DNA from: Candidatus Micrarchaeota archaeon
GTDB lineage: Archaea; Micrarchaeota; Micrarchaeia; Anstonellales; Bilamarchaeaceae
Length of the DNA stretch: 64,000 bases
Reading direction: 5' to 3'
Assembly (NCBI GenBank): GCA_964588555.1
Contig: CAZPPT010000006.1
Location: forward strand, 12,092-76,091
Shown in pieces: positions 1,679 to 44,279 of the stretch. The position numbers and the translations under genes were made by a program. The notes beneath the pieces are model-generated. The model saw only the letters and a program-made list of their open reading frames with translations. It was not told the origin of the DNA and searched no databases. The number at the start of each line of letters is the position of its first letter. Position 1 is the stretch's first letter.

Positions 1679-2158
1679 TTACGACCCAACATTCGTTTGC
1701 TGCCTTGCCGCCCAGAGGCGGATTGCAAGCGGCACCTCATCCAATATTTTTCGCTCTTCGTCGCTCAGCAGATGGCCTTGTTTGCGGCGGGCATCTATCT
1801 TGGCCGCAAGCCGCGCCATGTCCGTAACGACCTCAATGGTTTGCGCACGGCTAATCTGTGGTGCCCTAAGGGCGTCATCCCGTCCTTTATCTTCAGGATG
1901 GGGCGGGTATATTCTCGCTCCTTTCGGGACCCGATCCAGAAGCGCAATATCCCCCTCCTGGGTTTTTCCTGACCTTAGCCTAAGCTCCGCCTCCCCTGCT
2001 TCATATGCAAGGGCAATTGCCAAGGGGTCGTAAAATGGCGATGTCCGCCTTTTTTCCGGTTCTTTAGTGAGCAATCTAAGTTGGTTTAATGCAGCGGTCT
2101 GGATCACGACTAATGCGGATGCAGTAATCGCCCTTCGTTTCATGCGCATAATGGTCAT
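1679..2158 (-). CDS. Hypothetical protein co-directional with and downstream of sigma-like gene 1
   Basis: 159-aa ORF with no recognised motif. Its only notable property is position next to the sigma-like cluster. Confidence 0.4.
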   Translation of the reverse strand: MTIMRMKRRAITASALVVIQTAALNQLRLLTKEPEKRRTSPFYDPLAIALAYEAGEAELRLRSGKTQEGDIALLDRVPKGARIYPPHPEDKGRDDALRAPQISRAQTIEVVTDMARLAAKIDARRKQGHLLSDEERKILDEVPLAIRLWAARQQTNVGS

Positions 2159-2206: not shown

Positions 2207-3178
2207 CTATATGAATTCCATTTGTCCGTGTGCCTCCATTAGTTTGCCATGCGTGATGCGCATTAGTTTTCTAAGCCTATGTGCACTGTATCTGGCCGCT
2301 TCGGGGACAAATTTTTGCCCGATCTCTTCTATCCCGTATCCCTGTTCCCGAAGTGCGGCCACTCTTACCTGCCATTCAATTACCCCACTTATCATGAGAA
2401 GCCGCTCAAAATCGGCGCGCAATTCCACACGCCGTATGTCTTCAGACGCTGCCATGATATGGCGTAGCCTTCGCATGTGCCGTTCAGCCCTTGCATCGAG
2501 TGACGCAACACCATATGCATTCTGCATGCATCGGGCTTCGTCATCAAGCTCCTTTCTTTGCAGCGCATAATCTTCTTCTGAAAATAACCTAAGTATCCGT
2601 ACTGCCTCCTTATTTCTAAATCCAAGCGTGGCGAGTTCGTCTACCGTGGGCTTTCGCTTGTGCGCTTCAAAGAATTTGATGATTGCCTCCTTTATGGCAT
2701 GCGTCATATATGTATGATGCGGGATGTGGAGTTTTGGTGCCATGGTTCGGAGGAGTCGCTGCATCTCACGTTGTATTGCAGGGATCGCGAAGGTGGAAAA
2801 CTGCGCTCCTTTTTCCGGCTTAAAATATTCCGCAGCGCGGATCAATGCAACCATGCCTGCATTTGCAAAGTCCTCAAACGTAATACCATACCGTGCCCCT
2901 CTTTGTTCAAAGCCATTTTGCCGTATTGTTGAGCTGACAAGGCGGGCGTTATGGAGTACTAACTGGTCCCGTGCGCGTTTCCCGTGCCGGATTGCGTTGC
3001 GAAGTTCGGTTATTTTTGCCGGGTCGGCTTCAGTACTCAGCTTCTTTTGCGCGCTTCGTGCTGCCTGTACTGCGTGTGCAAGCCGGATGCTCTCCGGGCC
3101 TTCAAGTGCATGGTATCTGTCGAGAATAGTTCCGATAGGATACGGGGAGATTTTATTTGCATTGGATTTTTTCCGCAT
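2207..3178 (-). CDS. Sigma-70 family RNA polymerase sigma factor homologue (paralogue 1; regions 1.2-2-3-4)
   Basis: Region 2: NAGMVALIRAAEYFKPEKGAQFSTFAIPAIQREMQRLL, which matches the consensus GNxGLxKAVEKFDxxRGxKFSTYAxWWIRQAI. Region 3-like KLHIPHH, compared with consensus IRIPVH. Diverged region 4 HTH GIEEIGQKFVPEAARYSAHRLRKL. Confidence 0.75.
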   Translation of the reverse strand: MRKKSNANKISPYPIGTILDRYHALEGPESIRLAHAVQAARSAQKKLSTEADPAKITELRNAIRHGKRARDQLVLHNARLVSSTIRQNGFEQRGARYGITFEDFANAGMVALIRAAEYFKPEKGAQFSTFAIPAIQREMQRLLRTMAPKLHIPHHTYMTHAIKEAIIKFFEAHKRKPTVDELATLGFRNKEAVRILRLFSEEDYALQRKELDDEARCMQNAYGVASLDARAERHMRRLRHIMAASEDIRRVELRADFERLLMISGVIEWQVRVAALREQGYGIEEIGQKFVPEAARYSAHRLRKLMRITHGKLMEAHGQMEFI

Positions 3179-3227
3179 CTGCTTATTAGGTGGCGTTATA
3201 TATTAAAAGGAGGGTATCAGAATTCAA

Positions 3228-4373
3228 CTATGCCGCCTTTCGTTTTCCCTTAAGCCATGTTTTATCCATTGCACGGGAGCCGTTCCTTTTAATGGCGTGG
3301 TTTCCTTCCTTAAGCAACTCGTCATCTATGCTCCCAATCATTTTTTCCTCCTTTAGTATATCAACAATGGTCTGCAGGTTCGTGCCGCTTACCTGCGAAA
3401 GCGTTTTATCGGAAATGGCGTGCAATCCCATTTGTGGCACCCCTGCCTCCAAAAGATACCTTCTTTTGTGCTCCAAGCTCCAAAATTCACGCCCTGGCTT
3501 TTTGCGGCCTGTTTTTTCCGCAAGCCTTTCAAGTATGCGGTCCTTCCGACTCTTGACCGCTTGCTTTGTTATTGTTCGTGAGAACAGTTTTCGGTCACCG
3601 GCGATCTCTTGGAGTTCAAAGCCGACCGCGCATCTTGCAAGTATCCCTTTCTCCTGGGCCGTGATGTCATCCCGCCTAAAAATCTCCATTAGTTCGATAT
3701 GCGCACCGATACGGTTATCCCCTGTTGGGTCACGGATCACTTCTTTTAATTGCATTGTTTCATCGCCTTCATATATCAATCCATCAATAGTTCCAAGCCC
3801 ATGGCTGTTTTTGAATTCTAGGTATAACGATTCCCATTTTTCTCGTTCTTTTCCATAATCATCGCTTAGCTTGCCAAGTATTTCCTTTGCCCGTTTGGTT
3901 TTGAGCCCGCGTTTTTCTATTTCTTGTTCAGTTGGTTTTCTTCCAAGCAGGTGCATCATTTCAAGTATGCGGTCAAGGATGGAGATGGCACTTCCAAGCG
4001 TGCGCGCTACTCTTACCTGCGGGCCTTGATAAGCAATCAGGTTTCGTACATTGTTTTGCATATTGATAAAACAAAATGCCCTTAGTTGCCCCTTATCAGG
4101 TTCAAATTCCTTGCATGCCTGCATGACCCCTTCTGCCGCTGCCTGCAGTATGTCTTCAGGCAGTAACCCACGTCGTTTTGCGCGGAAATATAGTTCTGAC
4201 CTTTTTATAAGGTGGACATACTGGAGGGCATGGAGCGTGAGTTTTTCACGGGCGGCAGGGTCATTTGTTTTTCCATATGCCCTCACTTCCTCATCAGTAA
4301 GCGGCAGGTAGTTTTTTGCATAATTGGAAGCCATGCGGCGCATGGGTGAACCTGATACTTTGTTACGTTTCAT
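3228..4373 (-). CDS. Sigma-70 family sigma factor homologue (paralogue 2)
   Basis: Region 2: AAAEGVMQACKEFEPDKGQLRAFCFINMQNNVRNLI. Region 4-like: ILARCAVGFELQEIAGDRKLFSRTITKQAVKSRKDRILERL. Sits in tandem with paralogue 1. Confidence 0.7.
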   Translation of the reverse strand: MKRNKVSGSPMRRMASNYAKNYLPLTDEEVRAYGKTNDPAAREKLTLHALQYVHLIKRSELYFRAKRRGLLPEDILQAAAEGVMQACKEFEPDKGQLRAFCFINMQNNVRNLIAYQGPQVRVARTLGSAISILDRILEMMHLLGRKPTEQEIEKRGLKTKRAKEILGKLSDDYGKEREKWESLYLEFKNSHGLGTIDGLIYEGDETMQLKEVIRDPTGDNRIGAHIELMEIFRRDDITAQEKGILARCAVGFELQEIAGDRKLFSRTITKQAVKSRKDRILERLAEKTGRKKPGREFWSLEHKRRYLLEAGVPQMGLHAISDKTLSQVSGTNLQTIVDILKEEKMIGSIDDELLKEGNHAIKRNGSRAMDKTWLKGKRKAA

Positions 4374-4415
4374 ATCTTAATTAGTATAGTGTTAGTAATT
4401 TAAACTGTATGGTCA

Positions 4416-4784
4416 TTAAAGCCTGACGAGCACGTCATTCCCCTCAATCTTTACCTCGTATTTTGGTATCGGTTCAGATGCCGGAGGGGCCGTATTCTTG
4501 CCAGTTGCAATATCAAATCGTGCACCGTGCCACGGGCATTCTATTTCATTTCCGTCTACCTCCCCTTCATCAAGCGGCCCATCTGCATGCGTACATTTGG
4601 CCCCGATGCCATATACCTTCCCGCCGGTGTTAATAAGCACTATATCCTTTCCTTGCACGCTTACCTTGTGTGCAGTACCGGGCTTTATCTCAGCAAGAGT
4701 ACAGACTTTTATGAAATTGGGCATATGATTCACCGTATCGTAATGCTTGTTTGATATTAAAATAGTTCCCTTCAAGATTTGCAT
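4416..4784 (-). CDS. Rieske [2Fe-2S] ferredoxin domain protein
   Basis: Two Rieske boxes, CTHADGPL and CPWHGARF (CxH...CxxH). Confidence 0.75.
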   Translation of the reverse strand: MQILKGTILISNKHYDTVNHMPNFIKVCTLAEIKPGTAHKVSVQGKDIVLINTGGKVYGIGAKCTHADGPLDEGEVDGNEIECPWHGARFDIATGKNTAPPASEPIPKYEVKIEGNDVLVRL

Positions 4785-4795
4785 ATAAATTTAAT

Positions 4796-6748
4796 ATGTA
4801 CCACCTAACTGTTGCTTGTGGTACCATGCCAAAAAGACTAAAAAAACCCAAAAATTATTCCCATTCACCGCGTGAACATGTCGATGCCATCCTTAATTCC
4901 CATGCATTATTCGACCATAGGTTAAATTTTTTGTTCGCCGACATCGTACGGGAGGGCAGGCAGGCAAGACGCGTGTTGCAAGAACTTTCAGGCAACCTTC
5001 GTGAGCCGCTTGTTTCGAAGCTTGAAGAGGCGGCCCTGCATGGGGAGCGTGCAGCTGAGGCCATGATTCTTCATAACGTTGGACTTGTGGCCGGATTTAT
5101 TAAGAAATGTGTTTTTGGCAACCCTCGAATACGTCGTATAGCCAAGCGCAGCCATATCGAGTATGAGGACCTTGTGCCAATTGGGGTAGTCGGCCTCCAA
5201 AAGGCCGTTGAACGCTATGATCCTGAAAGGGACGTGCTTTTTTCCACCTATGCACGATACTGGGTCCGCCAAGCCATTTTTATGTACCTTGCTGATAATG
5301 GGTCGCACATCCGCGTTCCCCGGAGCTTAATCGGCCAGCTACGGAAGACCGAGAAGATTATCGCGTTTGTCGAAATGCATAGGAGAAAACCGACAAAGGA
5401 GGAATTAAATGCGGTGCTTGGCGAGGCAAGTGTCGAGGCCGAACAGATTCTTGATAGTTTTGATGATCATGACCTTGAACGTGTGAGGGATGATGTACGC
5501 AAGAAACGAAATGGGGTGACAGCAGCCGGCCAAATTTTGTCCTTGTCAATGCCCGTCGGTGAAAATGAAGGCCAGACCCTTGGCGACCTGCTTGCAAGCC
5601 AGGGTTCAGACCCAGAATCTTCATTGTTTAGGCGTGAGTTTGCCACTGCTGTCCTGGAAGCCGTTTCGTCATTATCCAAGCGCGATCAGGTCATTGTTGA
5701 AGGGAGGCTTTTTCATAAACGGGAACTCCGTGTAATTGGGGAAGACTTATGCGTTTCGGGCGAGAATGTGCGCCAGCTTGCATTTCTTGCGTTTCGGCGG
5801 CTGATTGAGCACATGCGCAGCTCTGCGATTGATTCGGGCTACGTGAGCGCCTTTATTTGTTATCTTACGCAGGAATCAGGTATCCTTAAGCAAACTGCCA
5901 AGTTTAAGGAAAAAATTGAATACCTGAAAAGTGAGCCTGACCTGCCTCATCGGCTTGCATTGGATGCAGGGTCAGGGCTTTACATGCTCCCGCCACTTTC
6001 ATTTCTACGTCAAATTATCCCTGAGTTGCGCACGGCGGGGATTCTTAATGGCCTGCATATTGACCTTCTTATACTTTTATATTCGCGGTACGCTACTGAA
6101 AAACAATCGTGCGCCGAAATCGCTTTACGTGAAAAAGAACGGCGCAGCCCAAAGGAAATGCCTGCAAGGCGTGTTTACGTTACCGCGGATAAGAAAATCA
6201 ACTATCTTGTTTCAGAAGGCTTTTCTAATGATACGGCCGCAGATCTTTTGGGGCTGGGCACATCCGTATCATTTGAGGCATTACAGTTTGCAATCCCTAG
6301 GCTAAAAGAAGCCGGGCTTGCCCCTTTTATTACTGAACGAATGCTCGTAAACGCGACCCGGCTCTATAAACGGGTTGGCACGGATGATGCAAAATGGGCG
6401 TACTGGCTCCACAAGCAGAGGAGAACTGCCGGACTTGCAACAGGGTCAGCGAGGAGGCCGCACGCACATAAGTCTTTAGGAGAGAAAATAGCATATCTTG
6501 AAGAACAGGGGATCGATCCACAGGGACTTTTAGAAGGCCGGCCAAACATCCGCTCCGTTCCCCTTACGTTCTTACGAGTGTTTATTCCCCTTCTTGCGCA
6601 AGCGCGCCGTCTTGAGGATATTTCAAGCCCGCTTTTGGTGGCGGCATACAAGGAATCAAGGAAACGCCGTTCGTCAGATGCGCTTTCTAAGTGGCTTAAG
6701 GGATATCATGAAAGAGGGGCATATTCATCCAAAACGCCAATCAGCTGA
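4796..6748 (+). CDS. Sigma-70 family sigma factor homologue (paralogue 3) with a ~320-aa C-terminal extension of unknown function
   Basis: Region 2: IGVVGLQKAVERYDPERDVLFSTYARYWVRQAIFMYL. Region 3 HIRVPRS. Region 4: RELRVIGEDLCVSGENVRQLAFLAFRRL. An alternative start is MPKRLKK at 4826. Confidence 0.75.
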   Translation: MYHLTVACGTMPKRLKKPKNYSHSPREHVDAILNSHALFDHRLNFLFADIVREGRQARRVLQELSGNLREPLVSKLEEAALHGERAAEAMILHNVGLVAGFIKKCVFGNPRIRRIAKRSHIEYEDLVPIGVVGLQKAVERYDPERDVLFSTYARYWVRQAIFMYLADNGSHIRVPRSLIGQLRKTEKIIAFVEMHRRKPTKEELNAVLGEASVEAEQILDSFDDHDLERVRDDVRKKRNGVTAAGQILSLSMPVGENEGQTLGDLLASQGSDPESSLFRREFATAVLEAVSSLSKRDQVIVEGRLFHKRELRVIGEDLCVSGENVRQLAFLAFRRLIEHMRSSAIDSGYVSAFICYLTQESGILKQTAKFKEKIEYLKSEPDLPHRLALDAGSGLYMLPPLSFLRQIIPELRTAGILNGLHIDLLILLYSRYATEKQSCAEIALREKERRSPKEMPARRVYVTADKKINYLVSEGFSNDTAADLLGLGTSVSFEALQFAIPRLKEAGLAPFITERMLVNATRLYKRVGTDDAKWAYWLHKQRRTAGLATGSARRPHAHKSLGEKIAYLEEQGIDPQGLLEGRPNIRSVPLTFLRVFIPLLAQARRLEDISSPLLVAAYKESRKRRSSDALSKWLKGYHERGAYSSKTPIS

Positions 6749-11008: not shown

Positions 11009-11699
11009 AACACCGGTTAAGATCGAATTGATGGAAAAAGATTTACACGTAAATGGGACAATGCATCCGCACGCAGTCCGCACGCTCGCCCAGATGTCGG
11101 ATGTGCTTCGTACTGCAAGTGCGCTTTCAGATCGGCCACTTTATTACATGTATCGGGCCGTTTATTCACGCGCCCCCCTTCGCTATGACATTACGTATGT
11201 CCCCGCGGCCTTTATCGGTTCCGAATACGTAAAAACGTATGGTCACTACCATCCAATTGCCCCCGACGGGCTTGCGTATCCTGAAGCATACCAGGTGCTT
11301 GCGGGCGAGGCATTATTTCTCCTTCAGAAAAAAGAATCGCACGGTATTTCGGTGCTTCTTGTCGAAGCAAAGGAAAAGGAGGTAGTGCTTTTCCCCCCTG
11401 GCTATGGTCATGTGAGCATCAATCCGGGCAAAAAGGACCTTCTTCTTGCAAACATTGTTTCGGACAGTTTCAAAAGCGATTACAGCGAGTATAAGAAAAA
11501 TCGCGGTGCCGCATGCTATTATACTACGCGGGGCGTGGTGAAAAACGTCCTTTACAAAAACACCACGGTCGAGCGCATCTCTGCACTAGACCTCAATGCG
11601 CGCTATCATTTCGTTTCTGATGACTTACTGGCCGAACTTCATTCTAACCCGAAAAAGTTTGAGTTTTTGGAGAAGCCGAGTCTGCTTTTTAGGAAATGA
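10989..11699 (+). CDS. pgiA: Cupin-type glucose-6-phosphate isomerase (archaeal cPGI)
   Basis: TYGHYHP and FPPGYGHVSINPG motifs, the cupin metal-site pattern of Pyrococcus-type PGI. Confidence 0.6.
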   Translation: MVMDIYKTPVKIELMEKDLHVNGTMHPHAVRTLAQMSDVLRTASALSDRPLYYMYRAVYSRAPLRYDITYVPAAFIGSEYVKTYGHYHPIAPDGLAYPEAYQVLAGEALFLLQKKESHGISVLLVEAKEKEVVLFPPGYGHVSINPGKKDLLLANIVSDSFKSDYSEYKKNRGAACYYTTRGVVKNVLYKNTTVERISALDLNARYHFVSDDLLAELHSNPKKFEFLEKPSLLFRK

Positions 11700-11781
11700 G
11701 GGGGCATATGCGATTTTATCTAAGCGTCTTGCGCCAGTACATTTCACTTGACCATGAAATCACAAAAGCAGATAGACCGAC

Positions 11782-11802
11782 GGCGTTTGTGCCGTTTCGG
11801 AA
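11782..11802. repeat. 20-bp direct repeat GGC(G)TTTGTGCCGTTTCGGAA (copy 1) flanking the hicBA cassette
   Basis: An exact 17-bp core TTTGTGCCGTTTCGGAA recurs at 12327-12346. The core contains the palindrome CCGTTTCGG. Confidence 0.5.
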
Positions 11803-11846
11803 AAATTGACCTAAAACCATATGCTTAAATTTCTTCATAGGCATAA

Positions 11847-12083
11847 TTGTATGGTGAACACATGAAGAAAAGTTTTCATATTGTCTTAGAAAAGCAGGAT
11901 GAAGGTGGCTACACCGTATACGTACCAGAACTTCCTGGTTGCATTTCACAAGGAGAAACAGAAAAAGAGGCGCTTGAAAACATTAAAGAAGCTACTGAAC
12001 TCTATTTAGAAGAACTAAATGCATCCCAAATGGAAAATACTTTAAAGCGAATTAAAGTTATCGAACCTCATGCAAGCTTGTGA
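11847..12083 (+). CDS. hicB: HicB-family antitoxin (UPF0150)
   Basis: HIVLEKQDEGGYTVYVPELPGCISQGETEKEALENIKEA, the canonical HicB N-terminal domain. Confidence 0.7.
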   Translation: MYGEHMKKSFHIVLEKQDEGGYTVYVPELPGCISQGETEKEALENIKEATELYLEELNASQMENTLKRIKVIEPHASL

Positions 12084-12303
12084 TTTTATGAAACTTCCAA
12101 CAGATGTCAGTGGTTGGGAGCTTGCAAAGATCGCAGTGCGTTTAGGTTTTGAAATACGTCGCCAAAAAGGAAGTCACCTTATTCTGAAAAAAGGAGAAAA
12201 ACTGCTTGTTATTCCTCAGCATAAAACCTTAAAGAAGGGTACCCTTTTACAAATTCTAAAAACAATGGAACTATCAAGAGAAGACCTTGAAAAGTTGCTT
12301 TAA
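12070..12303 (+). CDS. hicA: HicA-family mRNA interferase toxin
   Basis: GWELAKIAVRLGFEIRRQKGSHLIL...VIPQHKTLKKGTLLQILK, the YcfA/HicA fold motif. Overlaps hicB by 14 nt. Confidence 0.7.
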   Translation: MQACDFMKLPTDVSGWELAKIAVRLGFEIRRQKGSHLILKKGEKLLVIPQHKTLKKGTLLQILKTMELSREDLEKLL

Positions 12304-12326
12304 TCTGCTTTCAGATTCAGTTAACC

Positions 12327-12346
12327 GGCTTTGTGCCGTTTCGGAA
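12327..12346. repeat. 20-bp direct repeat (copy 2) flanking the hicBA cassette
   Basis: Same as 11782-11802. Itself flanked by the CAGTTAAC inverted repeat. Confidence 0.5.
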
Positions 12347-12506
12347 CAGTTAACTTTCCTTCTTTTCCTCAATGAATCATTTCCATAGTTTTTTATAGAC
12401 TATGCGCTTGCCTTCTATCCTTTCTTCCCCTTCAATATCCTTGGTAATAATGGGCAACTCGTTTTTGCTTCCGTTTTGTAACTATATCGTTTTTTCAGAA
12501 AACTAT

Positions 12507-15215
12507 TTATAGCTCAACCATTTCAACTTTCTGCGCTTTACCTGAAGCTAAATGCTCGTTTCCGCCGCCATTTCCGCCAAGTCTGGAAAGCACGTTCTTA
12601 AGAAGTTCATTTGCCTTGTATTTTGAGTTCTTGCCCGTAGCACATACGACATTTCCCTGTTTGTTCATAAGTACTGCAGCACTGTCATCGCTGTCAACGA
12701 CCTTTCCGCCAATTTTCTTGAGCGCGTCAGGACTTATATCAAGGATCCGCATTGCTACTTTTTCTTTTCCGTGTTTGATGATTTCGTGCGCCTCGTCATC
12801 AATCAACCTTCCAGTAAGCGTCTCGATCGTTTTGCGCTGTTCCTTCCATTCGGTAAAGAACCGTTCAACCGTCCTCGGTAGTTCGGTTTCGCCCACCATT
12901 AATTTGCCCGCAGTCTCCCGCAACAGCGCTTCGCGTTCCTGCATGTACTGAATAGCAACATCTCCGCATTTATAGGTCAGCCGTTCGATGCCGTCCTGGA
13001 TGCTTTCGCGTTTGACGATCTTGAATGCGCCGATTTCGCCTGTCGTTTTAAGCATATGGTGCGTTCCGCCGCATGCCTCGCTGTCTACTTCGCCCATGCT
13101 TACGACCCGAAGCTCCTTTCCGGGCACCGCCCCTCCCTGGTAGAGCGTAAAACCGTAGGTCTGTTCAGCCTGTATGCGTGGCAGCACCTCTACCTTGATC
13201 GGCATGTTTGCAAGGATAAATCGGTTTACCAGCAACTCGATTTTATCTACTTCTTCTTGCGTAATTTTACGGTAATGCGTAATGTCGAGGTGCGCACGTT
13301 CCTCATCCTTGTGCGAGCCGCCCTGCCATGCATGCCGCCCAAGCACGTGCCTGCATGCCGCAGTAACTAAATGGGTTGCGCTGTGGTGGCGCGTAATTGC
13401 CCTTCTCCGTGCAAAGTCAACTGTGCCAGTTACCTTTTGCCCTTTCCTGAATTTCCTTGGGTCAGCAACCTCATGAAGGACTACGCCTGCTTCTTTGGTT
13501 GTGTTTGTAACTGCAGCTTCGTTTAGCTTCCCCGTATCTCCAACCTGCCCCCCGCCTTCAGGGTAAAATGCAGTTTGGTCAAGGACGACGTGATTGCCAA
13601 CTACGCCCAGTACCTGTGCAGTAAATGTTTCCTTTTCAGTATAATAGAGCTGCTTTGTCTTTGGCATATCTGAGACGTCAAGTGCGCTTTTCTTTTTTTC
13701 CTGGACGCCCTCCTCTTTTCCCCGTACGAGGGAATAGAAGTTGCCGGGCATCTCGACCTCCACATCGTTCTCGCGTGCCGCCTCGACCACCGAGTCGGGG
13801 GGTATGCCGTTACTTTTGTAAAGCGTAAATAGTTCATCAGCGGTGATCCTCCCATTTCCCCCCGCCCGCTCCTTAAGCGGTGCCTGTCCGCCTGTGCCCT
13901 TTGCCTTTTTGATGATATTGACCACAATGCTTCGTGCCTTTTCCTTTGTTGCGCCGTATCTTTTTCGTTCTTCTTCGATCACTGCAAGCGTTGTGCCGAC
14001 ACCTTCATTGAGGTGGGGAAACATGTATTCAAGATGCCTTGCATGGCCCGTAAGGATCCGTTCGAAGTCAAGGTCGAATTTGTATTTTTCCTCAAACCCA
14101 AATACGCGCCGCAAAATCATCCGCAGGTTGTATCCTCCCCCTGCATTGCTTGGGAGCATGCCGTCGGTAACGGTAAACAAAAGGGTAAGCAGGTGGTCTG
14201 CGCTTGCATACAATGCTTGTAATGGGTCAAGTGCATTAAACAATTCTTCTTTGGAAACTCCCAGCATCTTTGCAACCCGCCTTTTCTCAGCTTCAAGGTC
14301 GCCGACCTCATCCTCATTAAGTGAGCCTGAAATTTTTGCATATCTGAGGAACAGGTCACGGTCAATGTCAACCTCATTTGCTTTTTTCATTTCCTTTATG
14401 ACGTCGCCAAACACGACCTCATAACTTGTCGGGTCGCCATTTGTGATCCATGCTAACCTGCTCAATCCGGCGCCCATATCGATTACTTTTGTTTTCAGTT
14501 CCCGGTATCCTGTTTCGAGAACCTCGTATTGCATAAACACGCAGTTGCCAAGCTCCAGGCCGCGTACAAAGTATTCCATGCTTGGGCCGAAATTCCCCCC
14601 GCCGTTCCAGACATCTTCAATAAACACGAGCTCGCTTTCAGGTATGCCAAGCTGCTTTAGGTACGCGATGTCATGTTCAATTGCCTCGTTTTTCCAGTAG
14701 AACAGCCCTGTTTTTTGGTTGTTAAAAGCGAGTTGGCCGACCATGACAAAATTTGTATAATGCCGCCCGCTCACGCCGACGTTGCTCACGTCCCCGAATC
14801 GGATGCACGGCTGTGGGACAATTACGGGGTTTGCCGGCGGGTCCAGTTCCCCCGTAACCACATACGGCTGGAAATCATTGATGCTTGCAATGGTGAAGTA
14901 CAGGTCATCGCGCCATCGTGCAACTGTTGGATACGGCCTTACATAGCCGTGCCCTGTTTTCTTGAAGTATTTTTCAATAACCTTCCAGGTATCCACATAG
15001 CCCAGTTTCTTTTTTACCGGCGTATCCCCGATAAACTGGTAGCCGATGCAGCCAGGATCGCCACAGTGCTTCCGCTCTTCAATACTCCAGAAGTTGCGTG
15101 CGCACTTCTCACATTTTCTTCGCTTAAATGAACGATTTTCCAGGCATTCCAACCTGTAGTGCTTCTGCCAGTCCTTTGCAAACTGGGCGCGTAATTCGTC
15201 TTTATTGATTTCCAT
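12507..15215 (-). CDS. alaS: Alanyl-tRNA synthetase, archaeal type
   Basis: VARWRDDLYFTIASINDFQP...PQPCIRFGDVSNVG archaeal catalytic core. Editing-domain HSATHL and CxxxH. C-terminal GGNGGG. Confidence 0.9.
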   Translation of the reverse strand: MEINKDELRAQFAKDWQKHYRLECLENRSFKRRKCEKCARNFWSIEERKHCGDPGCIGYQFIGDTPVKKKLGYVDTWKVIEKYFKKTGHGYVRPYPTVARWRDDLYFTIASINDFQPYVVTGELDPPANPVIVPQPCIRFGDVSNVGVSGRHYTNFVMVGQLAFNNQKTGLFYWKNEAIEHDIAYLKQLGIPESELVFIEDVWNGGGNFGPSMEYFVRGLELGNCVFMQYEVLETGYRELKTKVIDMGAGLSRLAWITNGDPTSYEVVFGDVIKEMKKANEVDIDRDLFLRYAKISGSLNEDEVGDLEAEKRRVAKMLGVSKEELFNALDPLQALYASADHLLTLLFTVTDGMLPSNAGGGYNLRMILRRVFGFEEKYKFDLDFERILTGHARHLEYMFPHLNEGVGTTLAVIEEERKRYGATKEKARSIVVNIIKKAKGTGGQAPLKERAGGNGRITADELFTLYKSNGIPPDSVVEAARENDVEVEMPGNFYSLVRGKEEGVQEKKKSALDVSDMPKTKQLYYTEKETFTAQVLGVVGNHVVLDQTAFYPEGGGQVGDTGKLNEAAVTNTTKEAGVVLHEVADPRKFRKGQKVTGTVDFARRRAITRHHSATHLVTAACRHVLGRHAWQGGSHKDEERAHLDITHYRKITQEEVDKIELLVNRFILANMPIKVEVLPRIQAEQTYGFTLYQGGAVPGKELRVVSMGEVDSEACGGTHHMLKTTGEIGAFKIVKRESIQDGIERLTYKCGDVAIQYMQEREALLRETAGKLMVGETELPRTVERFFTEWKEQRKTIETLTGRLIDDEAHEIIKHGKEKVAMRILDISPDALKKIGGKVVDSDDSAAVLMNKQGNVVCATGKNSKYKANELLKNVLSRLGGNGGGNEHLASGKAQKVEMVEL

Positions 15216-37570: not shown

Positions 37571-38965
37571 ATGGTTCGTCAAGTTCAGTCCCCTAGTGTT
37601 CGACAGGTCGTCAATCCAAAAATACAGGGAACGTTGCAATCACCTTTTGAAAGAGATCCCCTTATTGGCAAAGTCGTTTGTGGGCAGTTTGCCCTTGAAA
37701 AGAAGGTCTCAGGAGGTGGGATGGCAAATGTCTATGTTGCGCGCAACCGTACCTTGGGCACTCATCTTGCAGTTAAGGTTTTGAGGGAAGACTTGCCTGA
37801 TGCGTATGCACCTGATCGACTTAAGCTCGAGGCTGCGGTAATGGCAACAATACACCATCCCAACGTCGTACGGATTTTTGACCACGGGGAAGTGGAAGGT
37901 TTACCCTACATCGCCATGGAATATCTGTACGGAGGTTCGCTTGCAGACATGAGGCAGGATCGAATAACTGCACAAAATTCTGGCCCTTACTTATCATTAA
38001 GCGAGTCTATTGAAATTATCTTGCAAATATGCCAGGCTATAATACCACTCCATAGGCTTGGCCTTATCCATCGTGATTTGAAACCTGCAAATATTCTCCT
38101 TGATATAAGCCCAGGCGTGGAAAAACCGATAATAAAGGTATGTGATTTTGGACTTGTTGCACGCCATGATATGTATGAAGTATCGGCTGCACTTTTACCC
38201 TTGGTCACTTCAGTTGGTGACCTTACCCCCCCAGGTGCAAGCGCCGGTACCCCTTCTGCCATGGCACCCGAACAATTTATGGGAACACATTCATTTACTA
38301 CTGACGTTTATGCCGTATGCGCCATGCTTTATGAATTCGTATCTGGAAAGCGGCCGTACGGTAACCCCGCCCCCGATACTACTGTCACGGAATGGTATGC
38401 GCTTAAAAACAAGCCCGTGCGGCCACTACGTGAAGCAAACCCTGAAGTTACGGTGCACCCTCTTCTTGAATCAATTGTCATGCGTGGCCTTGCTATTGAG
38501 CCTGCAGACCGCTTTCAGACAATTTCAGAATTGCACGATGCGCTTCTTGGGGTTCAATCAGCCATACGCAGCCCGGCTCACTCACCCTCGATTCAGGTCC
38601 CTGCTTCCGCACCATCCCTTCAACTGCGAAGTTCACTGTGGCAGTATACACGGTATGTTGCGATCGGGGCGCTTCTTTCAGCTGGGGCAGCATTTCTTTC
38701 ATTTTCACAGGGCACTCAGTCGATTCCGGTTACGCCGACTCCTGCGCCTGTGGCGACATCGTCGGTCATGATCGACTGCAATCCTATCGGCGCACAAGTC
38801 TTTGATGAAACAGGCATGCTTCTTGGCACCACGCCTTTGGAGATTAATCCAACCCTTTTAAAATCGTCTTTTATAACTATTAAAGCAGCTGGGCATACCA
38901 AAAAGTCAATTGTTATCTCCAAACAATCTAATGGCTTTATATATGTTGATCTATCTAAAGAATAA
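37571..38965 (+). CDS. Hanks-type Ser/Thr protein kinase with TM segment and C-terminal PEGA domain
   Basis: GGGMANVYVAR...AVKVL (subdomains I/II), HRDLKPANILL (VIb), DFGL (VII), then a TM helix and a PEGA-like VMIDCNPIGAQVFDETGMLLGTTPLE. Confidence 0.8.
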   Translation: MVRQVQSPSVRQVVNPKIQGTLQSPFERDPLIGKVVCGQFALEKKVSGGGMANVYVARNRTLGTHLAVKVLREDLPDAYAPDRLKLEAAVMATIHHPNVVRIFDHGEVEGLPYIAMEYLYGGSLADMRQDRITAQNSGPYLSLSESIEIILQICQAIIPLHRLGLIHRDLKPANILLDISPGVEKPIIKVCDFGLVARHDMYEVSAALLPLVTSVGDLTPPGASAGTPSAMAPEQFMGTHSFTTDVYAVCAMLYEFVSGKRPYGNPAPDTTVTEWYALKNKPVRPLREANPEVTVHPLLESIVMRGLAIEPADRFQTISELHDALLGVQSAIRSPAHSPSIQVPASAPSLQLRSSLWQYTRYVAIGALLSAGAAFLSFSQGTQSIPVTPTPAPVATSSVMIDCNPIGAQVFDETGMLLGTTPLEINPTLLKSSFITIKAAGHTKKSIVISKQSNGFIYVDLSKE

Positions 38966-39019: not shown

Positions 39020-40396
39020 ATGCAAATTCAGACTGAGGCTTTTTGTCGAAATACTACGCGACTCCGCTCGCCACGGGTACGCAACCCATTTAGCGGCGTT
39101 TCGCCAGCACCGGATACAAGCCTTATTGGTCAGCGCATAGAATACTTTCGTATTGTTGAACTGGTTGCCGAAGGGGGTATGGGTGCAGTTTACCGTGCAC
39201 AGCACATAAAACTTGGCTACGACGTCGCAATAAAAGTCCTTCACGCATCTCTTGTAACTGACCCGGTGATGATACGGCGTTTTCGGCGTGAGGCAGAACT
39301 ATTAAGTAGCATGAACGACCCCCATATCGTACGGGTTCGTGAATATGGATTTTACCATGATCTTCCTTATATTATTATGGATTATCTTGCAGGGCAAACT
39401 CTCGATGAAGTACTACGTGCCCAGACTCATATACATTCGGATCGTGCCGTATCAATTTTGCTTCAGATATGTGCTGCCATCGCGCCGCTTCATGCACGCG
39501 GCATCATTCACCGTGACCTTAAACCATCCAATATCATACTCCAAAACGGTGACGCAGTGAAACTTTTTGATCTTGGCGTAGCGCGAGAGATCACTGCATC
39601 AGAACCGCCCATGCCATCGGTAGCATGTTTTGTAACCGGCATGACCCCTCACGGCAATATCATTGGTACGCCTTCCTATATGCCGCCCGAACAATTCAAG
39701 GGATTATATAATTTCGAAAACGACATTTATTCGTGGGGGGTAATTGCATATCAAATGCTCGCTGGCGTTCTACCGTACGTATGCGACCGGATCGACATAT
39801 ACTCAGTTGCAAAGCAGGTCCCACCAGTACGCCTTCGTGAGCGTGTGCCGAGCGTCCCTCCCGTGCTTGAATCAATCGTCATGCGCGCCCTTGACCCCGA
39901 CCCAACACGTAGGTTTCAAACTGCAGGCGAGCTTTATGCCTGCCTTGCTGAATTTCAGTCAGGAAATGCTGCAGCACGTTCTGCCTTTCTAGACACTGCC
40001 AAGCAGGCTATGCATACACTACGCGTTAAGCACCCAGCTATCGGCAGCTTTGTTTCCATTTCACTTATCTCGGCAGCTGCAACTGTTGCGGCTTTGTTTT
40101 CCTTACCTAGCAACATCGTATCCAACTCTGCAACGTATCAGCCATTACCTGTCCAGGCATCAACTTATCCTACAGTTATGGTCGACTGCAATCCTATTGG
40201 CGCACAAGTCTTTGATGAAACAGGCACGCTTCTTGGCACCACGCCTTTGGAGATCTCATTTGGTCCTGATATGAATTTGCGCGACGTGACAATCAGGGCA
40301 GATGGCTATAAAGAGCGCCAGGTTACCCTCTCCACTGAAGGGCAGGTTGTTTCGGTTGTGCTTGAGCGGCCGTTGGTGCTTCTTGCAGGTGAATAA
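39020..40396 (+). CDS. Hanks-type Ser/Thr protein kinase, tandem paralogue, with PEGA domain
   Basis: GGMGAVYRAQH...AIKVL, HRDLKPSNIIL, DLGV, and C-terminal VMVDCNPIGAQVFDETGTLLGTTPLE. Confidence 0.8.
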   Translation: MQIQTEAFCRNTTRLRSPRVRNPFSGVSPAPDTSLIGQRIEYFRIVELVAEGGMGAVYRAQHIKLGYDVAIKVLHASLVTDPVMIRRFRREAELLSSMNDPHIVRVREYGFYHDLPYIIMDYLAGQTLDEVLRAQTHIHSDRAVSILLQICAAIAPLHARGIIHRDLKPSNIILQNGDAVKLFDLGVAREITASEPPMPSVACFVTGMTPHGNIIGTPSYMPPEQFKGLYNFENDIYSWGVIAYQMLAGVLPYVCDRIDIYSVAKQVPPVRLRERVPSVPPVLESIVMRALDPDPTRRFQTAGELYACLAEFQSGNAAARSAFLDTAKQAMHTLRVKHPAIGSFVSISLISAAATVAALFSLPSNIVSNSATYQPLPVQASTYPTVMVDCNPIGAQVFDETGTLLGTTPLEISFGPDMNLRDVTIRADGYKERQVTLSTEGQVVSVVLERPLVLLAGE

Positions 40397-42100: not shown

Positions 42101-42221
42101 GCGACTGTAGTCTAGCAAACTTTTTGGAAAAGTTTGATCAAAACACTTCCTTCAAGTTTGGGCGTTGGTAGGATTCGAGATTGCCAATCTCGTGACCCGG
42201 GTTCGAACCCCGGCGGTCGCA
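42101..42221 (+). tRNA. tRNA-Gly(GCC) with a ~48-nt D-loop intron
   Basis: GCGACTG TA GTCT AGC[intron 42117-42164]TTGGTA GGAT T CGAGA TTGCCAA TCTCG TGAC CCGGG TTCGAAC CCCGG CGGTCGC A. Confidence 0.75.
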
Positions 42222-43468: not shown

Positions 43469-43780
43469 ATGGAAAACATGGTTGTAACAACCGTCAGACT
43501 ACAAAAAAACCTTCTCAAAGAAGCAGATAAATTGGCAGAAAAAGAACTGAGTGACAGAACCACTATTTTACGTCAGGCAATCGCAAAGGGATTACAAGCA
43601 CTAAAACTTGAATACGCACTTACGCTCTATCAGCAAAAAAAAGTAAGCATCGGAAAGGCACGTGAAATTGCAGATATAACTTTTTGGGAATTCATGGATG
43701 TTCTTAAGGAGCGCAATATAGGCTTTATTACTGATGAGGAAGATCTTGAGCGGCAACTACGAGAATTAAAGAGGAGATAA
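43469..43780 (+). CDS. UPF0175-family antitoxin-like protein
   Basis: Small helical protein (LTLYQQKKVSIGKAREIADITFWEFMDVLKERNI) typical of UPF0175 partners of PIN-like proteins. Confidence 0.55.
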   Translation: MENMVVTTVRLQKNLLKEADKLAEKELSDRTTILRQAIAKGLQALKLEYALTLYQQKKVSIGKAREIADITFWEFMDVLKERNIGFITDEEDLERQLRELKRR

Positions 43781-43781
43781 G

Positions 43782-44279
43782 ATGAATGTAGTTGTCAATG
43801 CTTCTCCTCTAATTTTTTTAGCAAAACTTAATAAAATTGAATTACTTAAAATGCTCTTTGCCCAAACATTTACAACAGACGATGTCTTGGAAGAGGTATA
43901 TGGAGGGCTACAAAAAGGCTATCAAGACGCTATTCAGATAAAAGAAGCAGTTCAAAATAATGACCTCCGAATTCTTAAAATTAAGCAAAAACTTGCATTT
44001 GATGTCGTGCTTGGACGAGGCGAACAGTCTGTATTAGAAGCTGCATTATCATACACAATTCCCACGGTGCTTTTAGATGATTTAGACGCAATAAAAATAG
44101 CGCGTTATCTTAAACTGGAAGTTATAAGTACGCCATTTATTTTACTTCGTGCACTTCAAGATAAAAAATTACAACCTGATGATTTTGTAGATCTTTTTGA
44201 ACGTCTTGTAGAGAAATATAATTATCGTATCTCACCGGTTCTTTATAAGAAAATACTTGATTCTGCCAAGAAGATCTAA
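43782..44279 (+). CDS. PIN-like nuclease domain protein (DUF3368-type), toxin partner
   Basis: Starts 2 nt after the UPF0175 gene. N-terminal VVNASPLIFLAKL PIN-like strand with acidic residues downstream. Confidence 0.55.
   Translation: MNVVVNASPLIFLAKLNKIELLKMLFAQTFTTDDVLEEVYGGLQKGYQDAIQIKEAVQNNDLRILKIKQKLAFDVVLGRGEQSVLEAALSYTIPTVLLDDLDAIKIARYLKLEVISTPFILLRALQDKKLQPDDFVDLFERLVEKYNYRISPVLYKKILDSAKKI

Follow-up and report, generated by a model that had tools for sequence, protein, structure and literature searches.

Three divergent sigma-70-like genes in a Micrarchaeota chromosome segment, one with a C-terminal helical repeat tail

The sigma-like gene cluster and its C-terminal repeats

The subject of this study is a cluster of three sigma-70-like genes, named sigA, sigB and sigC, in a 64,000-nt stretch of DNA (hereafter the window) from a Candidatus Micrarchaeota archaeon (assembly GCA_964588555.1, contig CAZPPT010000006.1, positions 12,092 to 76,091 of the forward strand). 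The window is the only part of the genome in view, and all window-wide counts refer to these 64 kb. It contains exactly three sigma-like copies, all of them intact open reading frames (ORFs). They lie where an earlier reading of the DNA (the first-pass annotation) had placed them, and the motifs quoted there were found: FSTFAIPAIQ in sigA, FSTYARYWVRQAI in sigC and RAFCFINMQ in sigB. The genes and their parts, with helices as predicted by AlphaFold 2 (AF2), are as follows:

2207-3178, minus strand: sigA, 323 aa, a sigma-70-like paralogue with regions 1.2-like, 2 and 3 and a degenerate region 4
3228-4373, minus strand: sigB, 381 aa, the most degenerate sigma-like paralogue of the trio
4796-6748, plus strand: sigC, 650 aa, a sigma core and a C-terminal repeat tail
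4796-5845, plus strand: sigma core of sigC, residues 1-350, with regions 1.2, 2, 3.0, 3.2 and 4
5891-6142, plus strand: repeat module 1 of sigC, residues 366-449, opening with K-I-E-Y-L; helices at 366-379, 385-392, 401-413, 422-432 and 439-449
6185-6430, plus strand: repeat module 2 of sigC, residues 464-545; helices at 464-473, 478-485, 493-505, 514-527 and 531-545
6476-6712, plus strand: repeat module 3 of sigC, residues 561-639, with AF2 helices; the copy closest to the modules of P0013 and P0015, two relatives described below

By profile searches, all three genes belong to the sigma-70 superfamily. The Pfam model Sigma70_r2 (PF04542, cutoff 24 bits) scored 37.8 bits with sigA and 42.4 bits with sigC, above the cutoff, and 20.2 bits with sigB, below it. 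In sigC the Pfam models of regions 4 and 3 remained just under their cutoffs (22.7 against 24.1 bits and 20.7 against 25.3 bits, respectively), and NCBIfam TIGR02937 (cutoff 42.9) was exceeded by sigC (77.7 bits) and not reached by sigA (37.4 bits) or sigB (24.5 bits). The family PHROG_351, annotated as RNA polymerase sigma factor, matched sigA with 82, sigB with 58.5 and sigC with 146 bits, and its match in sigB covers residues 34-339, the whole sigma length. The best NCBIfam model of sigC, TIGR02997, scored 99 bits against an equivalog cutoff of 384.5, and sigC lies far under every cutoff of the specific equivalogs (such as RpoD, RpoS, SigF and FliA). Pfam gave no Sigma70_r1_1 or r1_2 match in sigA, sigB or sigC, and region 1.1 is absent from all three proteins.

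Structure prediction covered sigC alone of the trio. Its AF2 model has a mean predicted local distance difference test (pLDDT) score of 76; regions 1.2-2 and 4 exceed 85, with a range of 85-97 for regions 2 and 4. A Foldseek comparison aligned the model with the sigmaA chains of T. thermophilus and mycobacterial holoenzymes (E = 1e-10, about 330-380 columns), and the best PDB sequence matches of sigC were cyanobacterial SigA and RpoD chains (77 bits).

Nothing close to the trio was found among about 15 billion public proteins. When 1.84 billion cluster representatives were scanned exhaustively with HMMER, no protein exceeded 26% identity to sigC, and the best match was P0013. Word-index protein searches returned the queries themselves and bacterial sigmas only, and nothing for the repeat profile; run with the family alignment, this type of search missed even known family members. 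Metagenome scans with an alignment of P0013 and P0015, and with sigA, gave no match. Within the trio, sigA and sigC are 32% identical over 192 aa, sigA and sigB 26% over 161 aa, and sigB and sigC 25% over 115 aa, and the best non-self match in the comparison set was sigC for sigA and sigA for sigB. These identities and best matches fit old local duplications; in our preferred reading the three genes are a lineage-specific set of anciently diverged paralogues within an archaeal sigma-like protein family.

For the mapping of functional residues the trio was aligned with E. coli sigma-70 and other bacterial sigmas; the numbering of the E. coli sequence, used below, was checked at nine landmark residues and against bacterial matches. 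sigC carries the motifs FSTYA-x-YW-x-RQ and E-x-x-RQ. It retains D403, F427, S428, T429, Y430, W434, R436 and Q437, with W433 replaced by Y, as well as a well-conserved region 3.2, the sigma finger (LSLSMPVGENEGQTLGD), and E585, R588 and Q589 of region 4.2; T440, R441 and R584 are missing. The first-pass annotation had called the sigma signatures of all three proteins unmistakable, which is true of sigC only. In sigA (FSTFAIPAIQRE) and sigB (LRAFCFINMQNN) the tryptophan pair, Q437 and all of the -35-reading residues are lost, in sigA the equivalents of W433/W434/Q437 and R584/E585/R588/Q589 being gone, and sigB in addition stays under the Pfam threshold. At the positions of Y430, W433, W434 and Q437, sigC has Y, Y, W and Q, sigA has F, P, A and R, and sigB has F, I, N and N. 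D403 of region 2.2 is present in all three proteins, and at Q406, E407 and N409, which E. coli genetics has identified as contacts with the beta-prime clamp helices, the residues are P/I/V in sigC, N/A/M in sigA and Q/A/A in sigB. The erosion of canonical residues is graded, being least in sigC, further advanced in sigA and strongest in sigB.

The last 290-300 or so residues of sigC form, in the AF2 model, three five-helix units of about 85 aa each, joined by linkers of low pLDDT (residues 451-461 after module 1 and 547-558 after module 2), and each unit opens with K-I-x-Y-L-x-x-x-G. A novel C-terminal extension had been noted before; it is indeed present, but it measures about 300 aa and not 320, and consists of three repeats instead of a single domain. 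Comparable tails occur in P0013 (644 aa), which has three nearly identical modules and was aligned by phmmer to residues 48-609 of sigC, and in P0015 (448 aa), which consists of a sigma core and one module. The tail of sigC matched the P0013 repeats in BLAST with E = 3.9e-4 (module 2), and the P0013/P0015 module profile in hhalign with E = 4.1e-4 (residues 560-607, module 3), which gives modest but consistent support to the homology of these tails. A sigma core followed by one or more modules of the form K-I-x-[FY]-L-x-x-x-G ... I-P is found in sigC, and sigA lacks the module. As the tail of sigB (residues ~300-381) matched the repeat profile weakly (hhalign E = 0.032) and showed no significant BLAST similarity to the tail of sigC (E = 1.3), its resemblance to one repeat copy is kept as a possibility only. 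The Pfam family DUF5343 (PF17278, cutoff 27) was recognized in the tail of P0013 (33.8 bits over three stretches) and not in that of sigC, and no literature on DUF5343 turned up in the searchable literature. There is also a hint, confined to the C-terminal module, of a likeness to mTERF-type helical repeat proteins.

Members of the archaeal family, as proposed here, have a sigma-70 core that lacks region 1.1 and often carry one to three copies of the five-helix module of about 85 aa.

Promoters, relatives and native residence

Upstream of the sigma-like genes the following promoter elements were recognized:

3186-3207, minus strand: sigA promoter element, TATA box TTTAATATATA and CCACCTAA box, ending 8 nt before the ATG
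4397-4404, minus strand: TATA-like box TTTAAATT of sigB, 31 nt upstream of the sigB start, without a CCACCTAA box
4790-4808, plus strand: sigC promoter element, TATA box TTTAATATGTA and CCACCTAA box, in the divergent Rieske/sigC intergenic region

The A/T-rich TATA-like boxes of sigA (-30) and sigB (-31) lie at the archaeal distance, like those of other genes of the window (the alanyl-tRNA synthetase gene, AlaRS, -29; pelota, -31; thermosome, -25; and many others), and the sigA transcript is predicted to be leaderless. Transcription is predicted to start near 3178 for sigA and near 4819 for sigC. Two copies of the 8-mer CCACCTAA are present in the window, and each follows an identical TATA box, TTTAATAT[A/G]TA, at a distance of 0-3 nt. 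The composite pattern TTTAATAT[A/G]TA-N(0-3)-CCACCTAA, which was defined after the data had been seen, has an expected count of 0.00 in the 64 kb; its two occurrences are those at sigA and sigC. Since about 19 nt are conserved even though the sigA and sigC proteins are only 32% identical, a common cis-element appears to lie between the TATA box and the predicted start. This candidate CCACCTAA element may be a shared operator or a promoter-proximal element; its presence at both genes implies that sigA and sigC are co-regulated and possibly autoregulated.

The relatives of the trio add information on context and rate. P0015 (L082:3629-4975) is encoded directly 3' of an archaeal stalk operon (L1, L10/P0 with the RL10P insert, and L12/P1) and is followed by an IF-2B-family gene. 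The same arrangement was found on the 41-kb contig CDMARG010000041.1 of assembly GCA_976012905.1 (here L166), where a 451-aa sigma-like orthologue (11353-12708) shares the contig with genes for TFB, aIF2-gamma, S6e, archease, CysRS and SBDS. This shared synteny indicates that the family resides on the chromosome, has been passed on vertically in at least one archaeal lineage and co-exists with TFB. P0015 and the L166 orthologue are 47% identical, whereas the flanking genes are 84-98% identical. The nonsynonymous divergence (dN) of the pair is 0.415 against 0.008-0.09 for the neighbours, and the ratio to synonymous divergence (dN/dS), 0.06-0.12 in the neighbours, reaches about 0.24 in the sigma-like gene, in its core as well as in its tail, a rough figure because dS (1.7) is saturated. 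The sigma-like gene thus evolves 5-8 times faster than its neighbours, yet it is retained. sigC, P0013 and P0015 retain the melting motif (FTTYAYWWVNQ in the last), whereas sigA, sigB and the L166 orthologue have lost it; in the L166 protein W433, W434 and Q437 are gone (FSNYAYLSIRGR). Because the gene is retained while the L166 orthologue has lost the motif, it seems that selection is not preserving the canonical promoter-melting chemistry.

Two observations on other loci may be added. On the short contig that encodes P0013, the gene is preceded by that of a 375-aa ankyrin-repeat protein (L081:45-1172). At L163:311-3927 a further sigma-70 match, P0039, is immediately followed by a DEAD/Helicase_C/MZB gene in an MZA-type anti-phage locus, and some of the nearest database sigmas are therefore defence-associated.

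The window itself is archaeal, as the first-pass annotation had held: it encodes AlaRS (TIGR03683, 912 bits), a thermosome, pelota, SRP54 and PurP, and its AlaRS is 54-76% identical to that of many metagenome-assembled genomes of Micrarchaeota, a DPANN lineage. The cluster does not stand out from it, in agreement with the earlier view of intact paralogues and not contamination. G+C content (GC) is flat across the cluster (0.46-0.49), synonymous codon usage gives z = 0.00, -0.18 and -0.44 for sigA, sigB and sigC against 68 window genes, the tetranucleotide correlation at 2.2-6.8 kb is r = 0.883 (0.894 +/- 0.022 over all equally sized segments), and both flanks continue into archaeal genes. In composition, codon usage and TATA geometry the cluster is like the DNA around it, which makes contamination, a chimera or recent transfer very unlikely.

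Only the two genes adjoining AlaRS are syntenic among 80 Micrarchaeota AlaRS loci (L001-L080), and nothing corresponding to the 1-10.5 kb stretch, which holds the cluster, lies within 10 kb of AlaRS in these other genomes; a tblastn search of the 80 loci (1.3 Mb) with the three sigmas and eight neighbours gave no match. In L002, hisD/hisC lie on the other side of AlaRS, which points to a local rearrangement or a variable region.

Two further ORFs border on the sigma-like genes:

1679-2158, minus strand: ORF159, 159 aa, in the orientation of sigA and 48 nt downstream of it; its own TATA-like box is at -20
4416-4784, minus strand: gene of a small soluble Rieske [2Fe-2S] protein, 122 aa, between sigB and sigC (Pfam Rieske, 71.4 bits)

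The Rieske protein had been reported between the sigma-like genes and is confirmed there. As called, its start and that of sigC are 11 bp apart. The real start of the Rieske gene is probably M21 at 4724, given this narrow spacing and the agreeing TATA position, and that of sigC is likely to be the second ATG, at 4826, the only one that the TATA geometry fits. Starts at 4724 and 4826 would leave a divergent Rieske/sigC promoter region of about 100 bp. No Rieske gene is present at the related sigma-like loci (L081, L082 and L166), and the protein is probably a bystander, as its gene does not adjoin sigma-like genes in related contigs. ORF159 (codon-usage z = -1.11; GC 0.537, above its neighbours) matched no Pfam family. 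It was considered as a relative of the repeat module and rejected, as it has no similarity to the module; it might act as a partner to the sigma-like proteins. The neighbours of the cluster comprise genes for thioredoxin, ArsR, TRAM, an unknown ORF, Rieske, ATP-cone and membrane proteins.

Elsewhere in the window, ARAGORN detected no tRNA, and Rfam gave a single 60-nt tRNA match (42162-42221, 32.8 bits, full model); the tRNAs of the window may be unusual or interrupted. On 1-12 kb Rfam found nothing credible. Two adjacent genes encode eukaryotic-type Ser/Thr kinases (37571-38965 and 39020-40396; Pkinase 116 and 148 bits), and two small ORFs at 43469-44279 have a GC of 0.38 and 0.335 and a third-position GC of 0.32 and 0.22, the window average being 0.47.

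Possible roles of the trio

Our preference, a tentative one, is that sigA, sigB and sigC are sigma-derived regulators exapted to archaeal transcription and not classical sigma factors. Transcribed, as predicted, from ordinary archaeal TATA-box promoters, these sigma-fold DNA-binding regulators would act alongside or on the archaeal machinery of TBP, TFB and RNA polymerase (RNAP). sigC would be a sequence-specific DNA binder, which is plausible because it lacks region 1.1 and keeps the residues that read the -10 and -35 elements, and its C-terminal helical repeats would add contacts to nucleic acid or to a partner. sigA and sigB, because their reading residues are lost, would be modulators or partners. 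Dombroski and colleagues are said to have found that sigma-70 without region 1.1 can bind promoter DNA without the core, and most archaeal regulators are helix-turn-helix (HTH) proteins of the bacterial type. From the features of the three proteins we infer both DNA binding without core polymerase and a regulatory role.

Several points weigh against this proposal. DNA binding and expression of the trio are predictions from sequence and any targets are hypothetical, and the dN/dS figure, with its saturated dS of 1.7, comes from a lineage other than that of the window genes. Fast evolution and loss of the motif would equally fit relaxed constraint. The -10 melting residues and the sigma finger of sigC exceed the needs of a simple HTH protein and hint at a polymerase-coupled role. 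Finally, only 64 kb are in view, and a bacterial-type RNAP elsewhere in the genome is possible.

Service to such a polymerase, one of the roles listed in the first-pass annotation, found no support. A scan of 1-12 kb gave 19 sigma-70-type -35/-10 sites, no enrichment over the 18.6 +/- 4.8 expected, Q406/E407/N409 are replaced, and TFB is encoded on a related contig together with a sigma-like gene. No RNAP subunit was detected among the ORFs scanned in the 64 kb.

Could the trio instead be working sigma factors for the archaeal RNAP? They would then dock on the clamp coiled-coil and the dock/flap, at the sites of the B-linker and B-ribbon of TFB, and open or select a subset of promoters with TFB or against it. 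In topology, sigma regions 2 and 3.2 have their analogues in the B-linker and B-reader of TFB. sigC retains the melting/-10 residues, the sigma finger and E585/R588/Q589, and its model has a full sigmaA-like fold; the family co-exists with TFB (L166), and the altered region 2.2 patch could reflect re-adaptation to the clamp helices of archaeal A' and not loss. However, the melting motif varies across the family, even between syntenic orthologues, the lack of enriched -35/-10-like sites in 1-12 kb also tells against this explanation, and it is without precedent. We consider it unlikely. Improbable in our estimate is a more elaborate form of it, in which the sigma fold has been domesticated as a second layer of promoter selectivity: sigC would dock on the clamp coiled-coil/dock of the archaeal RNAP in place of or together with TFB, its retained -10/-35 heads would read DNA, the mTERF-like repeats would serve as an extra nucleic-acid clamp, and sigA and sigB would be anti-sigma-like competitors.

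It is quite unlikely that the genes are cargo of a DPANN virus, provirus or mobile element, now residing in a variable chromosomal island. Such an origin would agree with the presence of genes annotated as 'rpoS' in DPANN viruses (PMC12647753), with the phage family PHROG_351 as the best profile match, with the non-syntenic 1-10.5 kb stretch at the AlaRS loci and with the fast evolution and local expansion of the genes. On the other hand, composition and codon usage are fully native, and the gene of L166 and L082 lies inside a core ribosomal-protein neighbourhood. IMG/VR contains only ordinary phage sigmas of 25-37% identity, none of them with the repeat module, and BFVD gave no match to the tail of sigC; a scan of the viral collection gave no match with sigC and only generic phage sigmas with the family alignment. 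A prophage was considered for the locus and rejected, as it has no integrase, capsid or terminase gene, no adjacent tRNA and no att repeats.

We regard it as distinctly improbable that the three genes are functionless relics of an old bacterial transfer, duplicated and now decaying under relaxed constraint. The stepwise loss of canonical residues (sigC retaining most, then sigA, then sigB), the 5-8 times faster evolution of the orthologues and the absence of close relatives from about 15 billion proteins are what decay would produce. It would hardly leave three intact ORFs of 323-650 aa, each with its own TATA box, a dN/dS of about 0.24 in core and tail alike (P0015/L166 pair), or a 19-22-nt promoter element conserved between paralogues of 32% identity, and relics are not expected in DPANN genomes, which are small and streamlined.

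An assembly chimera or bacterial contamination has next to no chance of explaining the cluster: although bacterial primary sigmas are the closest matches once family members are set aside, there is no discontinuity in GC, codon usage or tetranucleotides, the promoters are of archaeal type, both flanks run into archaeal genes, family members occur on independent archaeal contigs, and mis-binning was excluded for DPANN sigma genes by Castelle et al. 2021 (PMC8204110).

Comparison with known sigma systems

Nowhere does bacterial transcription differ more sharply from that of archaea and eukaryotes than in its initiation factors, sigma on one side and TBP/TFB on the other. Sigma-fold proteins stably kept in archaea, predicted to be expressed from TATA promoters and lying near genes for TFB and ribosomal proteins, raise the question of what use a sigma has without the bacterial core. 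The locus also bears on how bacterial genes become part of the regulatory networks of DPANN symbionts. The trio, with a near-canonical sigC and degenerate sigA and sigB, constitutes a graded natural series for binding and in vitro transcription tests, and the locus offers a previously undescribed sigma-fused repeat module as well as the candidate shared operator CCACCTAA. If sigC did engage the archaeal RNAP, it would take sigma-dependent transcription beyond Bacteria and organelles for the first time.

The core surprise is already known, and the occurrence of sigmas in archaea is not without precedent: Castelle et al. 2021 (PMC8204110) reported a sigma-70 family, 'fam00359', in DPANN archaea, especially Woesearchaeota. 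They found no anti-sigma factors, excluded mis-binning and left the mechanism open. A 2025 study (PMC12647753) described two 'rpoS'-annotated genes in DPANN viruses, one of them in a prophage. We found no description in the searchable literature of a Micrarchaeota three-gene sigma cluster, of a repeat-module fusion defining an archaeal sigma subfamily, of ribosomal-operon synteny of a sigma-like gene together with TFB, or of the pattern of rate and motif erosion and the shared promoter box.

Weak matches of the sigma domain to MzaA of the MZA anti-phage system (NCBIfam 75.8 bits, cutoff 800; PADLOC 48 bits) were also obtained. An MZA defence system was rejected, as the match is confined to the sigma domain and neither an MzaB-like helicase nor a defence gene lies nearby.

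Among the known systems, bacterial sigma-70 factors of groups 1 and 2 (cyanobacterial SigA, 8h3v, 9dvs and 8gzg; RpoD) share with sigC the domain order 1.2-2-3.0-3.2-4. In contrast to bacterial primary sigmas, the trio has neither region 1.1 nor the non-conserved region, scores far under the equivalog cutoffs and has Q406/E407/N409 replaced; the residues that read DNA are missing from sigA and sigB, sigC bears a 300-aa repeat tail, and the host is an archaeon with TBP/TFB-type promoters. The 'rpoS' genes of DPANN viruses, compared by description, are likewise divergent sigma-70 homologues tied to DPANN, whereas the window locus has no viral context. The members of fam00359, again compared by description, resemble the trio in being genes of DPANN genomes classified as sigma-70. 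That report gives no architecture; the present locus adds a Micrarchaeota host, a three-gene cluster, the fusion to a repeat tail and a measured evolutionary rate.

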